This document shows, one piece after another, positions 55,825-59,534 of a DNA stretch of 64,000 nucleotides. Both the position numbers and the translations under genes were made by a program. The notes under the pieces were generated by a model. It made no database searches. It was given only the letters and a program-made list of their open reading frames with translations, and was not told where the DNA came from. Location of the stretch: NCBI GenBank assembly GCA_014728035.1, contig WJMJ01000071.1:133253-197252 (forward strand), given 5' to 3'. Each line of letters begins with the position of its first letter. The first letter of the stretch is position 1. The stretch comes from Promethearchaeota archaeon. GTDB taxonomy: Archaea; Asgardarchaeota; Thorarchaeia; Thorarchaeales; Thorarchaeaceae.

Positions 55825-57243
55825 ATGGCCGATATTGTTTCTGTTGCAAAGACGGAAAAATTATACACGAATCCCAAAGTATTGATTATTGCTATAGACG
55901 CGATGCTTATTATGCTCGGATTTGGCATCATTGCGCCTTCCATGTCGTTCTATCTTTTTGCTTTAGAGGGCCAATTAACCCAACCTCCCGGTCCTGATTA
56001 TATCATTCCTCCAGAAATAGTTGCAGAATTTTCGTTGATTCTCGGAATAATGATGGCATCATTCATGGGCACTCGTACTCTTCTCGCGCGGTATTGGGGT
56101 GGAGTTAGTGATATGCGTGGGAGAAAACCAATTTTGAATACTGGCCTTTTAGGATATGTTGTCCTACTAGTTCTTTTTGGATTTGCACAGAATTGGATTC
56201 ATCTCTTGATTATTAGGGCTTTGCAAGGTGTCGTATCTGCAATGACGTGGCCTGTTGCTGAAGCAGCTTTGATGGATATTGTGGGTATTGAAAGAAGAGG
56301 TGAAGGACTGGGTCTCTACATGGTAGTTTCAAACATTGGCTTCATAACGGGTCCCGGAGTTGGAGGTCTCCTTTATAATTTCTGTAGAGATTTCTTGCTA
56401 CTTCCTGTACCTGATGTCTTCAGAGTCCCGTATTTTATTGCTGCACTCATCACCTTACCAGCTGCGATTTTTACTGCTGTCTTATTAAAAGAAACTGCTC
56501 CTGGCAAAGTTGAACATCACGAGTCGGATCAGCAAAAGCTGGAGTCTGATATGGGAACTACATCACACCAATCTATTATTGAATCTGATGGACCTGAAAC
56601 CGAACAAATGGATGACAAAACGAGAAAAATGGTTCATGCTCTTTATGTAATGGCTGTGATGAATGGAATTGCTATGGGCCTTGGGCAACCAATATTTCAG
56701 CTATTTCTTATGAGTAAAATCACGACCGATATAGGCCTAATCGGTCTTGTAATCTCTGGAGCAGGTGCAATTGGTATGCTATTTTCAATTCCTGCAGGGA
56801 GATATGCTGATAAGAAAGGTCGGAAAGGATTAGCTGTATGGGGTGCAGCTGGTGCAAGAGTTAGCTATTTCGCACTACCTTTGACTACCAACCTAGCTCA
56901 GACCAGTATTTTTTGGATTGCTCAAAATGCATCATTCTCAGTTTCTCAACCTGCAATGCGAGCAATTCAAGCTGATGTAGTCCCATGGAATCTAAGAGGA
57001 AAATTGTTTGGAACTATTCAAGCTTGCTTTAATGCTGGGGCAACAATCGGTCCTCTTGCAGGAGGATGGTTGTTTGGTTATTTTTCACTCCTTCTTTTTC
57101 CCATTGGCCCATTCATTATAGAAGGTCTTGTAGTCCCATTTTGGTTGGCTTCGATATTAGGAATGATTGGTGTATTTCTGTTATGGAAATATGTTGAAGA
57201 AACACATCCAAGTCAAGAAACAACTCCTGAAGGTCAAGAGTAA
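55825..57243 (+). CDS. MFS transporter (DHA1-like)
   Basis: GGVSDMRGRK, RALQG, GRYADKKGRK, GATIGPLAGG. About 12 TMs. Confidence 0.9.
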   Translation: MADIVSVAKTEKLYTNPKVLIIAIDAMLIMLGFGIIAPSMSFYLFALEGQLTQPPGPDYIIPPEIVAEFSLILGIMMASFMGTRTLLARYWGGVSDMRGRKPILNTGLLGYVVLLVLFGFAQNWIHLLIIRALQGVVSAMTWPVAEAALMDIVGIERRGEGLGLYMVVSNIGFITGPGVGGLLYNFCRDFLLLPVPDVFRVPYFIAALITLPAAIFTAVLLKETAPGKVEHHESDQQKLESDMGTTSHQSIIESDGPETEQMDDKTRKMVHALYVMAVMNGIAMGLGQPIFQLFLMSKITTDIGLIGLVISGAGAIGMLFSIPAGRYADKKGRKGLAVWGAAGARVSYFALPLTTNLAQTSIFWIAQNASFSVSQPAMRAIQADVVPWNLRGKLFGTIQACFNAGATIGPLAGGWLFGYFSLLLFPIGPFIIEGLVVPFWLASILGMIGVFLLWKYVEETHPSQETTPEGQE

Positions 57244-57274
57244 TGATTTGAAACTCAGCAAGCTATTGCGTGCC

Positions 57275-57291
57275 GGGAAAAACATATATAC
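57275..57291 (+). promoter_or_regulatory. BRE/TATA promoter of the RIO kinase operon
   Basis: gggaaaaa-catatata-c. Predicted transcription start near 57314. Confidence 0.6.
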
Positions 57292-57343
57292 TAACCTTCG
57301 TAGAATGGACTTAATGCTTCGATAAATGGAGGTGTAGGTCAAA

Positions 57344-57406
57344 ATGACAGTCAAATTTCAAATAACTAATGTAGTAGGTACCTGCACTCTCGTTGTGAGA
57401 GTCTAA
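57344..57406 (+). CDS. Putative 20-aa leader peptide MTVKFQITNVVGTCTLVVRV
   Basis: Strong SD GGAGGTG at 57328-57334, ATG at 57344, TAA at 57404. Its 3' half overlaps the 5' arm of the RNA structure. Confidence 0.6.
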   Translation: MTVKFQITNVVGTCTLVVRV

Positions 57407-57626
57407 GGACTCCGCTACTTCTCAGTTTTCAACTCTCTATTACGCGTCGGACTGTTGATTCTAGAGGTCCAGCTTGTTGTTCAGGTATTTACTGTTTTTC
57501 AGAGATATTGTGCTATGAATACAGACGCGTGCAGGCTCAGCAATGAGAGTGAACAAAAAGTTGCAAACACACACTAAGAAACATTGTCCGAGCTATGGTT
57601 ACAGGCAGTGATCATGGTGGGCGGAC
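57381..57626 (+). promoter_or_regulatory. Structured 5' leader with mutually exclusive helices (putative translational attenuator)
   Basis: Helices read by eye: 57385-95/57541-51; 57442-48/57524-30; 57485-91/57516-22; start-codon hairpin 57586-602/57608-26; alternatives 57447-56/57580-91 and 57470-83/57550-63. Confidence 0.6.
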
Positions 57627-58417
57627 CAGTAGAGAAATTCAACCCGCTAAAACCAAGTGCTATCTCCCAGAAACGGGAACGACAAACTGATGGCAAATGG
57701 GCAAAACAGGTTGCAATAAAAGAAATCACGTTAGAAGATGTTAGGCATGATGCCATTGAATTCGGTCTTGCGACAGAAGTATTGGCTCAAGTCAAAGCAG
57801 GAAAAGAAGCATCGATTTTCATCGCAAAGTGGAAGGAGCATCCGATCATGTTGAAAGCATATCGCCTCTGGAGGTCTGCTCAAGCCAGTAATGAACGAGG
57901 TGTGTTTACTCTTGCTAAGATGCAGATGCTAGCTGCTAAAGAATATGATGTGCTTAAGGAATCATTTCAAGCAGGTGTTACAGTTCCCACTCCAATTGGT
58001 CGTGTTGGAAATTACATCACAATGCGATTCATTGGCGACGGTCTTGACCCAGCACCTCAATTGAAAGATGTACATCTTGAAAACCCTAATCAAGCATTGG
58101 ATGCGATTCTTGAAGAATATCTAAAGATGTATCGAGATGCAAATTATGTTCATGGAGACCTAAGCAAGTACAATATTTTGTGGTGGCAGAATCGTCCTTG
58201 GATTATAGATGTACCTCAAGCCTATACGGTTGGACCGTGGGCGAATATGAAAGAAGTAGTATTCCTACTTCGTAGAGATATCAAGAATCTGCTTTCCTAC
58301 TTCAAGCGTTACGGAATCAAAAGAAATCTCGATGAGATTGTAGATGTATTTCTCAGTGAGTATGTTCCTGAGAATCTTCGTCATTATGATGAGGTAGTAC
58401 CCTTCAGAGGTGTCTAG
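57614..58417 (+). CDS. RIO1-family atypical kinase/ATPase (copy A)
   Basis: AGKEASIF, LKAYR, VPTP, HGDLSKYNIL, IIDVPQA, LRRDIKN. Likely start ATG 57614. Confidence 0.9.
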   Translation: MVGGPVEKFNPLKPSAISQKRERQTDGKWAKQVAIKEITLEDVRHDAIEFGLATEVLAQVKAGKEASIFIAKWKEHPIMLKAYRLWRSAQASNERGVFTLAKMQMLAAKEYDVLKESFQAGVTVPTPIGRVGNYITMRFIGDGLDPAPQLKDVHLENPNQALDAILEEYLKMYRDANYVHGDLSKYNILWWQNRPWIIDVPQAYTVGPWANMKEVVFLLRRDIKNLLSYFKRYGIKRNLDEIVDVFLSEYVPENLRHYDEVVPFRGV

Positions 58418-58418
58418 T

Positions 58419-59234
58419 TTGGTTGTAGAGAAACATAATCCTTTGAAGAAGAGTATCCTACAATCGGAGCTCCTTGGCGAAGGCAAGACACAGATAGAAG
58501 AGATTTCTTTTGATCTGGTCAAACGATTAGCATTGAAATATGGACTAGCTACTGACGTACTCTATCAGATGAGTGCAGGAAAAGAAGCTTCTATTTTCTT
58601 AGCTCTCTGGAAAGAACATCCAATCATCTTGAAGGCATATCGTCTATGGCATTCGTCTCATACACTCTCAAAGAAGAAGGGCTATGTACCTCCTGGCACA
58701 TCTAAACGTTCTCATGTTATTACTGACATGATGGAATCTTTGGCTGTCCTCGAATATGACCTTCTATCAAAACTGTTCAAAGCTGGAGTTCATGTTCCTA
58801 CTCCAATTGGTCGCATTGGCAATTTTGTATCAATGCGTTTTATTGGTGACGGAGAAACACCGGCTTCTCAACTGCGAGAGATTACCTTAGAGAACCCTGA
58901 GAGAGTGATGAATCAGATCTTTGATGACTATCTCATCATGTATCGAGATGTTCACTACGTCCATGGAGACCTCAGTCAATACAATATACTGTATTGGCAA
59001 GATCGTCCTTGGATTATTGATGTTCCTCAAGCCGAGAAGGTTGACAAACACTGTAACATGCTCAAGATTGAGAAGATGCTACTACGTGATATTCAGAATG
59101 TGCTCTCGTACTTTGAACAGTACGATATCTATCGTGACCCTGAGAGTATCTTGGAAGTGTTCTTGAACTCATACATTCCTGACAACAAGCGACACTATAG
59201 GGAGCTCGTTCCAGAGGGTCTTGAATTACTATAG
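58419..59234 (+). CDS. RIO1-family atypical kinase/ATPase (copy B)
   Basis: AGKEASIF, LKAYR, HGDLSQYNIL, IIDVPQA. TTG 58419 follows SD GAGGTG, which lies inside the end of copy A. Confidence 0.9.
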   Translation: MVVEKHNPLKKSILQSELLGEGKTQIEEISFDLVKRLALKYGLATDVLYQMSAGKEASIFLALWKEHPIILKAYRLWHSSHTLSKKKGYVPPGTSKRSHVITDMMESLAVLEYDLLSKLFKAGVHVPTPIGRIGNFVSMRFIGDGETPASQLREITLENPERVMNQIFDDYLIMYRDVHYVHGDLSQYNILYWQDRPWIIDVPQAEKVDKHCNMLKIEKMLLRDIQNVLSYFEQYDIYRDPESILEVFLNSYIPDNKRHYRELVPEGLELL

Positions 59235-59246
59235 GAGGTAATAACC

Positions 59247-59534
59247 CTGACAAAAGCCTTACCAAGAAGTGCCGTTATTGTTCTAAGACACCTATCCACA
59301 AAAGGACCAATGTGTCCTCAGGATATCAGTGAGTGTTCTAGTTTAGCTCCTCGTACAGTAAGTTTTGCATTACGTCGTCTTGTTAAAGCAAAACTTGCAA
59401 AGAAGATTCCCAATCTTTCTGATATGCGAAGGCCACTTTACACTCCAAACAATGATGGCATCTACGAAGTTGTCCAGAAGAATGGACAAGATTCCATTAT
59501 TGGTACACAGTTATCCATGATTACACGGAGATGA
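59247..59534 (+). CDS. Archaeal MarR/ArsR-like winged-helix regulator, probable CTG start
   Basis: SD GGAGGT at 59234-39, then CTG at 59247 in frame with ORF 59310. This adds helix LPRSAVIVLRHLSTKGP before M.PQDI...RTVSFALRRL...DMRRPLY. Confidence 0.75.
   Translation: MTKALPRSAVIVLRHLSTKGPMCPQDISECSSLAPRTVSFALRRLVKAKLAKKIPNLSDMRRPLYTPNNDGIYEVVQKNGQDSIIGTQLSMITRR

Follow-up and report, generated by a model that had tools for sequence, protein, structure and literature searches.

A Covarying, Single-Copy RNA Element with an Upstream Reading Frame Precedes RIO-Kinase Genes in Thorarchaeaceae

Introduction

In a 64,000-nt stretch of the genome of a Promethearchaeota archaeon of the family Thorarchaeaceae (assembly GCA_014728035.1, contig WJMJ01000071.1, positions 133,253 to 197,252 of the forward strand), here called the window and numbered from its first nucleotide, a 370-nt gap separates an MFS transporter gene (55825-57243) from two tandem RIO kinase genes, RIO-A and RIO-B, all on the plus strand. 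What does this gap contain, and does it act on the kinase genes behind it? A sequence-only reading of the window had proposed a switch in the RIO leader. According to that proposal, an OFF fold is accompanied by burial of the RIO-A start codon, an alternative ON fold releases it, and a ribosome paused on an upstream open reading frame (uORF) decides between the two. Our analysis supports a structured leader that contains a uORF and whose RIO start codon is buried in a hairpin. It does not support the switch: holding the uORF region open leaves start-codon accessibility unchanged, and the leader is no more stable than dinucleotide-shuffled controls.

Positions 57276-57626 probably hold a promoter and the ~300-nt 5′ leader of the mRNA for a lineage-specific RIO-kinase pair, a folded RNA acting in cis, most likely on translation. 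The comparative evidence for the element is firm: it is a new, conserved, structured, single-copy RNA tied to one RIO-kinase subfamily in Thorarchaeaceae. To our knowledge, very few cis-regulatory RNAs are known in archaea, and we found none described for Asgard archaea in Rfam or in the papers searched.

Results and Discussion

A Single-Copy Element Linked to One RIO Subfamily

The leader region is unique within its own genome, which rules out a repeat or mobile element, and BLAST detected it 5′ of RIO genes in five other genera. A covariance model (CM), R1, was built from seven sequences; its quick calibration yields only rough E-values, and matches scoring 100-266 bits place homology beyond doubt. 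With R1, exactly one full-length copy is found in 66 of 86 Thorarchaeaceae genomes, representing 13 of 16 genera; all genomes are metagenome-assembled, and relatives are not independent. Divergent copies 5′ of the RIO orthologue in three genera (g13, g5, and g16) were missed by the filtered search. Genus g14, the only one in the family without the element, and the sister family have neither the element nor the RIO orthologue, and the covariance model search of 125 genomes representing 26 further families of the phylum was negative. Of the 49 loci fetched, 47 have the element directly 5′ of, and codirectional with, a RIO orthologue; the remaining two loci stop at contig ends. From the end of the model to the RIO start, the distance is 31-37 nt in eight genera (g1, g3, g7-g11, and g15).

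A search of 56000-59000 on both strands against Rfam 15 (4227 families; cmscan, E up to 10) gave no family match; the three hits returned are at chance level, and none falls within 57244-57626. No tRNA or tmRNA was found in the region. A known RNA family or a tRNA is thereby ruled out, and we found no description of the element in the literature.

Architecture and Covariation of the Leader

The element measures ~260-300 nt. Its parts, with the promoter before it and the genes behind it, are as follows.

57276-57291, plus strand: archaeal promoter, conserved in homologues, with a purine-rich stretch resembling a B recognition element and the TATA box ATATATAC (57284-91)
57328-57334, plus strand: SD1, GGAGGUG, the Shine-Dalgarno (SD) sequence of uORF1, present in 48 of 49 homologues
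57344-57406, plus strand: uORF1, 20 codons (MTVKFQITNVVGTCTLVVRV), stop TAA at 57404-06, open in 48 of 48 sequences
57329-57391, plus strand: helix P1, 57329-39 paired with 57380-91 (core GGUGYAG/CUGCACY), from RNAalifold
57399-57412, plus strand: hairpin P2, GAGUC-UAAG-GACUC, with the uORF1 stop in its apical part, from covariation
57413-57441, plus strand: linker J2/3, family consensus CGCUGCUUCUGUGUGC and window sequence CGCUACUUCUCAGU, strongly conserved in sequence
57442-57530, plus strand: three-way junction of P3 (57442-48/57524-30), P3a (57449-53/57466-70), and P3b (~57475-83/57516-23)
57534-57594, plus strand: 3′ domain, with P4 GCAAU/GUUGC (57540-44/57560-64), its loop GAGAGUGAA (57545-53), and then the block UUGCAAAC
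57534-38 with 57590-94, plus strand: P5, a candidate helix GGCUC/GAGCU, seen by eye and statistically weak
57543-57611, plus strand: uORF2, 22 codons, starting at the AUG in P4 and ending with TGA 2 nt before the RIO-A ATG
57586-57626, plus strand: start-codon-sequestering hairpin, CUAUGGUUAC (57593-602) paired with GUGAUCAUGG (57608-17) and closed by GUCCG/CGGAC
57614-58417, plus strand: RIO-A, a divergent RIO-domain kinase (Pfam RIO1, 5.5e-35)
58410-59234, plus strand: RIO-B, a divergent RIO-domain kinase in tandem with RIO-A (Pfam RIO1, 1.8e-34)

The fold was evaluated in a CM alignment of 49 homologues, which is biased towards the model structure. Across the whole model, 88.5% of cells are paired and 18 of 27 pairs show changes on both sides; not one of 500 shuffles reaches the observed value on any of five measures, and 3′ partners slid out of place as controls pair in only 23-51% of cells. 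Compensation is most complete in P3 (ACGCGUC/GACGCGU), where all eight pairs show it, 95.6% of cells are paired, and the ensemble probability in the window is 0.94; the junction closed by these strands had been predicted from the sequence and is thus upheld. All five modeled pairs of P2 change on both sides (86% of cells paired). P1 is paired in 91% of cells, with two pairs changed on both sides, and further compensations are seen in genomes G044 (GGUGUGA/UCGCACC) and G016 (GGUGUGACC/GGUCACACC); it is present in the minimum free energy (MFE) structure of the window and has a loop of ~40 nt enclosing the 5′ half of uORF1. P4 is 88-91% paired, and its changes are one-sided only. The arrangement P1-P2-linker-three-way junction-P4 is kept with compensatory changes.

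Inside the junction, P3a and P3b appear in the MFE structure and the ensemble of the window and, by eye, in shifted registers in other genera; MAFFT columns lose these shifting registers, and conservation of both arms was judged by eye. Every string quoted in the sequence-only reading is present where it was placed. Its arm GGAC/GUCC is thermodynamically supported (probability 0.95), with an equivalent arm visible in other genera. The second arm, GUAUUUA/UGAAUAC, was probably drawn in the wrong register, with an ensemble probability of 0.005: the favored partner of UGAAUACA (57516-23) is UGU.GUUCA (57475-83), in agreement with the alignment. P3b also carries the conserved motif AUUGUGCUAUGAA (57507-19).

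The stability of the leader as a whole gives no hint of this structure. The 337 nt from 57314 to 57650 fold at -86.6 kcal/mol, and their shuffles average -86.2 (z -0.08; 45 of 100 shuffles), contrary to the expectation that the leader would be more stable than its dinucleotide shuffles. A stability z-score alone would have missed a genuine structured RNA. RNA from the minus strand is ruled out, since it folds worse than its shuffles (z +1.14).

The region could in principle be conserved as DNA or as degenerate or small protein genes without any RNA structure, and short ORFs do exist in the window; in genus g6, the region 3′ of P4 is partly truly coding. However, neither coding nor DNA motifs can explain the compensatory changes in P1, P2, and P3, substitutions in uORF1 favor no codon position, and the minus strand folds worse than shuffles. 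The UUGCAAAC block, moreover, carries a 1-nt indel between genera that puts it in different reading frames, so that it must be conserved as RNA and not as protein, and a coding explanation for P4 and this block is ruled out. A purely DNA-level or coding constraint is almost certainly not the explanation and, as far as computation allows, is refuted by the covariation counts.

The most conserved unpaired segments are the linker, the junction, and the P4 loop, of which the last (GAGAGUGAA) is near-invariant. J2/3 is pyrimidine-rich, is predicted to be mostly unpaired, and has no supported partner; for these most conserved motifs no partner rises above chance, additional covarying column pairs included. 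A pseudoknot between J2/3 and the P4 loop was rejected: a column scan gave five consistent pairs, but these depend on wobble pairing and on changes on one side only, and the duplexes are just as stable as shuffled ones (mean z -0.04). We also rejected the idea that the leader mimics 16S rRNA or is complementary to it over an extended stretch. When two leaders were aligned locally, in sense and antisense, with the 16S rRNA of the same genome, they scored 20-22 against a shuffle mean of ~20, values matched by 54-120 of 200 shuffles. The 8-mer CUGCUUCU, shared with the h28/h44 region, is at chance level, and a 13-nt near-complement of the leader to helix 45 is within chance expectation.

A Promoter before the Leader and No Terminator behind It

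In 48 homologues, a TATA box lies ~32-40 nt 5′ of GGAGGUG, and the transcript is predicted to start at ~57314-57318. No oligo-U terminator or processing signal occurs between the leader and RIO. We favor reading the element as a cis-acting translational leader: it has a promoter of its own, no terminator precedes RIO, and its 3′ end borders the RIO ribosome-binding region at constant spacing.

The same linkage would suit a structural or regulatory RNA, processed or kept as a 5′ untranslated region (UTR), that complexes the RIO-type kinases or a small downstream protein labeled as helix-turn-helix (HTH), with the reading frames secondary. The element co-occurs strictly with the RIO subfamily and is lost together with it, it has its own conserved promoter, and over its ~260 nt many junction and loop nucleotides are unpaired yet invariant, a trait of protein-binding or catalytic RNAs. 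OLE RNA, a large bacterial noncoding RNA, is encoded beside its partner protein OapA, and RNAs of this type share with the element their size, a complex conserved fold, a narrow taxonomic range, and strict linkage to one gene. They are, however, separate transcripts or stable RNAs and lack conserved frames, whereas here the RNA is not separated from the gene and uORF1 is conserved. The SD sequence, ATG, and open frame of uORF1 would be needless in a purely structural RNA. No terminator or processing signal frees the RNA from RIO, and the 3′ end of the structure enters the RIO ribosome-binding region at the narrow spacing given above. We consider a partner RNA of this kind quite improbable.

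A TGACC-containing DNA motif lies ~10 nt 5′ of the TATA box in most relatives, ~45-60 nt 5′ of GGAGGTG (for example, at loci L023 and L038). It is partly palindromic, often a short palindrome of the type GCGGTGACCGC, and the genus of the window has a diverged version, GCGTGCCGGG (57268-57283). The motif looks like a transcription-factor site.

A Universal uORF with an Unconserved Peptide

SD1 is a perfect 7-nt complement of the 16S rRNA 3′ end, GGAUCACCUCCU, and the sole homologue among 49 without it is 5′-truncated at a contig end. In 48 of 48 sequences, the uORF1 ATG follows SD1 by 9-11 nt (12 in one case) and opens a frame of 18-26 codons, while the other two frames reach a first stop after medians of 0 and 6 codons. 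Substitution rates within genera are 0.223, 0.232, and 0.231 at the three codon positions. This lack of a third-position excess indicates that the peptide is not under protein-level selection, of which none was detected. Valine nevertheless accounts for 19-21% of the residues in frame, versus 4% and <3% out of frame, and is encoded by all four GUN codons at varying, scattered positions. We infer that uORF1 is kept for its translation and not for its product.

The frame is woven into the fold at both ends. P1 pairs the SD region of uORF1 with uORF1 codons ~12-15, and because SD1 sits within P1 its unpaired probability in the window is only 0.04. The sequence-only reading had assigned these codons to the 5′ arm of the OFF fold; they form the 3′ strand of P1 instead. 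The uORF1 stop falls within the P2 hairpin columns in 47 of 48 sequences.

Does this arrangement amount to an attenuator? The rate of uORF1 translation, or stalling at its Val, Ile, or Thr codons, could be a signal that is relayed by refolding (for example, through a pseudoknot or co-transcriptional folding) beyond what current energy rules and alignments capture. uORF1 is universal, has a perfect SD sequence, and encodes an unconserved peptide with a threefold enrichment of Val, spread over all four GUN codons at varying positions. Its stop is fixed in P2, ~7 nt before the conserved pyrimidine linker, and its SD sequence is masked by its own codons, so that translation would promote further translation. 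Rio1 and Rio2 kinases act on small ribosomal subunits, and feedback from ribosome supply would thus be biologically sensible. The likeness to bacterial trp, ilv, thr, and his leader-peptide attenuators lies in a short, SD-bearing uORF, rich in branched-chain residues and set within conserved helices; all 48 of 48 sequences have a leader uORF with a ribosome-binding site. These traits are shared by the Corynebacterium ilvB uORF motif (PMC10272879), and in such systems, too, it is the translation of the frame that counts and not the peptide.

Unlike those attenuators, the RIO leader has no terminator hairpin, no U-tract, and no overlapping 1:2/2:3/3:4 helices; the genes behind it encode protein kinases and not enzymes of biosynthesis, uORF and gene are separated by a 130-nt three-way junction plus another hairpin, and the host is an Asgard archaeon. 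We know of no demonstration of leader-peptide attenuation in archaea. A codon run for an amino acid made by the operon is not found, as Val is scattered and the genes encode RIO kinases; beyond a frequent VV, no single-codon run is conserved. Neither are mutually exclusive antiterminator and terminator helices: no U-tract is conserved, and the candidate alternative helices are not conserved either. The pseudoknot that might have relayed the signal is no better than shuffles, an independently conserved junction of ~130 nt would be needless in a simple attenuator, and opening uORF1 in constrained folding does not alter access to the RIO start, in the window or family-wide (see below). An attenuator is therefore unlikely.

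The RIO Start Codon Is Buried, and the Proposed Switch Does Not Free It

The RIO-A ATG (57614-16) lies inside the sequestering hairpin, as the sequence-only reading had it. This hairpin folds at -19.3 kcal/mol, a value reached by none of 200 shuffles (z -4.08); its probability is 0.91-0.99 under every constraint tried, and that of the inner AUG stem is 0.91 in the window ensemble. A relative of the same genus differs at four stem positions, all of which keep the pairing. Across genera, a column-wise test of the helix gives counts near those of controls because its register differs by genus, and only an alignment-free duplex test is informative. In all 21 short-spacer homologues, the RIO start codon falls within the most stable duplex that the segment after P4 can form with the start region (median -17.2 kcal/mol, mean z -2.1, 12 of 21 below z -2); in the window this duplex reaches -21.9 kcal/mol (z -4.5). 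A stable local hairpin holding the kinase start is thus a feature of the window and of most short-spacer genera. In genus g3, the lone sequence with an AUG start (L047) has the partner GGCUCAU, and its relatives with GUG starts have GGCUCAC.

The helices of the proposed switch fare differently. The window and its congener can both form the outer OFF helix (57385-95/57541-51), which shows no covariation and has an ensemble probability of 0.08 in the window. Across the family, only its ends are conserved: the three central pairs are unpaired in 29-42 of ~45 sequences, the lower part carries uncompensated mismatches at its middle in 19 of 45, and the observed level of pairing is attained by 126 of 500 shuffles. 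The two ON helices have ensemble probabilities of 0.007 and 0.025. The former, UCGGAC/GUCCGA, would break P3a and the covariation-supported P3, and the other (57470-83/57550-63) is paired in 47-57% of cells, as are slid controls. Forcing the ON fold (+1.2 kcal/mol) leaves a 10-bp inner AUG stem intact and thus does not free the AUG, and the third pairing suggested (57381-87/57529-35) is weak, with a probability of 0.002. The OFF and ON helices either are confined to the genus of the window or do not rise above chance. A ribosome on the uORF was supposed to expose the AUG. The RIO-A AUG stays buried in constrained folding, with an unpaired probability of 0.03 when nothing is constrained, 0.01 with 57370-57410 held single-stranded, and 0.00 with the whole uORF1 footprint held open.

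uORF2 and P5 are the other elements in contact with the hairpin. In the window, uORF2 runs through it; in the congener, the frame agrees in length and end point but not in peptide sequence. Termination next to the RIO start is seen in g1, g4, g6, and part of g8 and g11. P5 would pair the stretch immediately 5′ of P4 with the 5′ arm of the sequestering duplex, and its 3′ strand overlaps that arm by 3-9 nt in 16 of 21 sequences. By eye, P5 shows apparent compensations in g3, g9, g11, and g8 (CUCAG/CUGAG, CUCG/CGAG, GACUCA/UGAGUC); P5 and the sequestering hairpin would form a true either/or pair in g3, g9, g11, and part of g8.

Three side observations concern these sequences. In g6, the equivalent of uORF2 is a frame of 58-62 codons that stops at the RIO start, and its substitution rates by codon position (0.217/0.207/0.352) bear a coding signature; its product (L021, L023-L034) reads MRVKQK...RKAPLL..IPGI.HGCRLS..EVA, and the same stretch also forms covarying hairpins. 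The third-position excess of substitutions suggests that this ORF is probably a real small protein. In L044 (G086, genus g3), the P4 AUG is in frame with RIO with no stop between, which could give an N-terminally extended kinase. Just before the RIO-A ATG, GUGAUC (57608-57613) corresponds to the 3′ portion of the complete anti-SD complement GGAGGUGAUC, with which AGGCAGUGAUC agrees at 9 of 11 positions; an off-register SD sequence for RIO-A may therefore lie within the sequestering stem.

How the Leader Might Act

We propose that translation of uORF1 would melt P1 and P2, so that what matters is the translation of the frame and not its peptide. The junction and P4 domain would bind a factor, either a protein, possibly encoded in the operon, or a small ligand; recognition of this kind is suggested by how many unpaired bases of the linker, junction, and P4 loop are invariant. 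Kinase synthesis would then need the start-codon hairpin to be opened. In the window's genus, ribosomes reading uORF2 would most plausibly do so by translational coupling, and in some other genera the hairpin may open through competition with P5 for the same strand. Coupling through uORF2 appears to be the most economical way to open the AUG hairpin of the window. It cannot be a family-wide rule, because uORF2 is short and distant in several genera and P4 is absent from two.

Several results weigh against a cis-acting translational leader built in this way. The start of the transcript, the co-transcription of RIO, and the translation of the uORFs are all inferred from the DNA. Folding of the window gives no coupling of uORF1 occupancy to RIO start accessibility, and constrained folding of 46 homologues gives a mean accessibility of 0.41 versus 0.42, with a shift of more than 0.15 in only 3 of the 46. 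uORF2 has no evident SD sequence and is short and distant from the RIO start in g6b, g3, and g15 (3-13 codons in several genera). P5 is weak: its column counts equal those of shuffles, the mean duplex z is -0.9 across the family and 0 in the window, and P5 forced in the window costs the AUG stem only two or three base pairs and mostly coexists with it. Genera g12 and g2 (L056, L059, L061, and L062) lack P4 and P5 altogether, which means that no one downstream mechanism suits all genera. For the most conserved unpaired motifs, finally, no partner was found. As a separate observation on g12 and g2, their RIO start lies ~25 nt past P3 in an A-rich stretch without an SD sequence.

Known translational systems resemble parts of this scheme. 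In translational attenuation of ermC and cat, the downstream start lies in a stable hairpin and a frame precedes it on the same mRNA, and uORF2 of the window likewise traverses the hairpin and stops 2 nt before the start. In the erm and cat leaders, however, the stalling peptide is conserved and the uORF directly overlaps the sequestering helix, whereas here uORF1 is ~200 nt from the start with an unconserved peptide and uORF2 is not conserved across genera. The RIO start is sequestered as in those systems; uORF1 has no contact with the sequestering helix, and uORF2 contacts it only in the window and some genera. Riboswitches and ribosomal-protein leaders share with the element a covarying, multihelix 5′ UTR whose junctions and loops contain invariant nucleotides and which immediately precedes the ribosome-binding region of one specific gene family. 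An aptamer-like fold with covariation is indeed present (P1-P3; 0 of 500 shuffles). For an expression platform, P5 overlaps the sequestering arm in most of the short-spacer homologues but is weak and dispensable in the window fold. The element differs from those leaders in that it has no Rfam match, no significant resemblance to 16S rRNA, and a translated frame inside the structure.

A more speculative and rather doubtful possibility is that the leader senses translational capacity, as a device peculiar to Asgard archaea, and adjusts the level of the lineage-specific RIO pair through its masked anti-SD-complementary site, two CUGCUUCU-like pyrimidine tracts, and the SD-like GAGAGUGA loop. The RNA would compete for, or report on, free small subunits or a maturation factor that binds the 16S 3′ end. 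If true, such a sensor would couple the supply of small subunits to the synthesis of kinases from a subunit-maturing family, and archaea would gain their first described ribosome-sensing mRNA leader, in a lineage closely related to eukaryotes. Whatever its mechanism, the element joins covariation support, a sharp association with a divergent RIO pair, a conserved uORF, and a complex junction, and it offers an entry point to translation control in Asgard archaea, to uORF-based control there, and to the role of an unstudied RIO subfamily.

The RIO Genes and Their Host

RIO-A and RIO-B score 121 and 120 bits, versus 192 for canonical Rio1, and lie below the NCBIfam Rio1 equivalog cutoffs; among solved structures, those of archaeal Rio1 and Rio2 are the nearest. 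Four RIO-domain genes occur in the genome, with canonical Rio1 on another contig. Behind RIO-B, an ORF of 74 aa (59310-59534), labeled an HTH protein in the sequence-only reading, has no Pfam or NCBIfam match; its product is a candidate binder of the promoter motif or of the leader.

A sister species in the window's genus (G001; L009/L025) has a leader 87% identical to that of the window. The RIO gene that follows shares only 51% identity with RIO-A, and its N-terminus resembles that of RIO-B; it therefore seems that loss or recombination removed one of the two tandem kinases there. In several family members, full-length matches to 16S rRNA span 2.1-2.4 kb versus ~1.5 kb (G001:C2:589938-592348, G080:C82:4569-6699, G094:C10:124412-126689, and G021:C73:13812-16104), which suggests that their 16S genes carry large insertions or introns.

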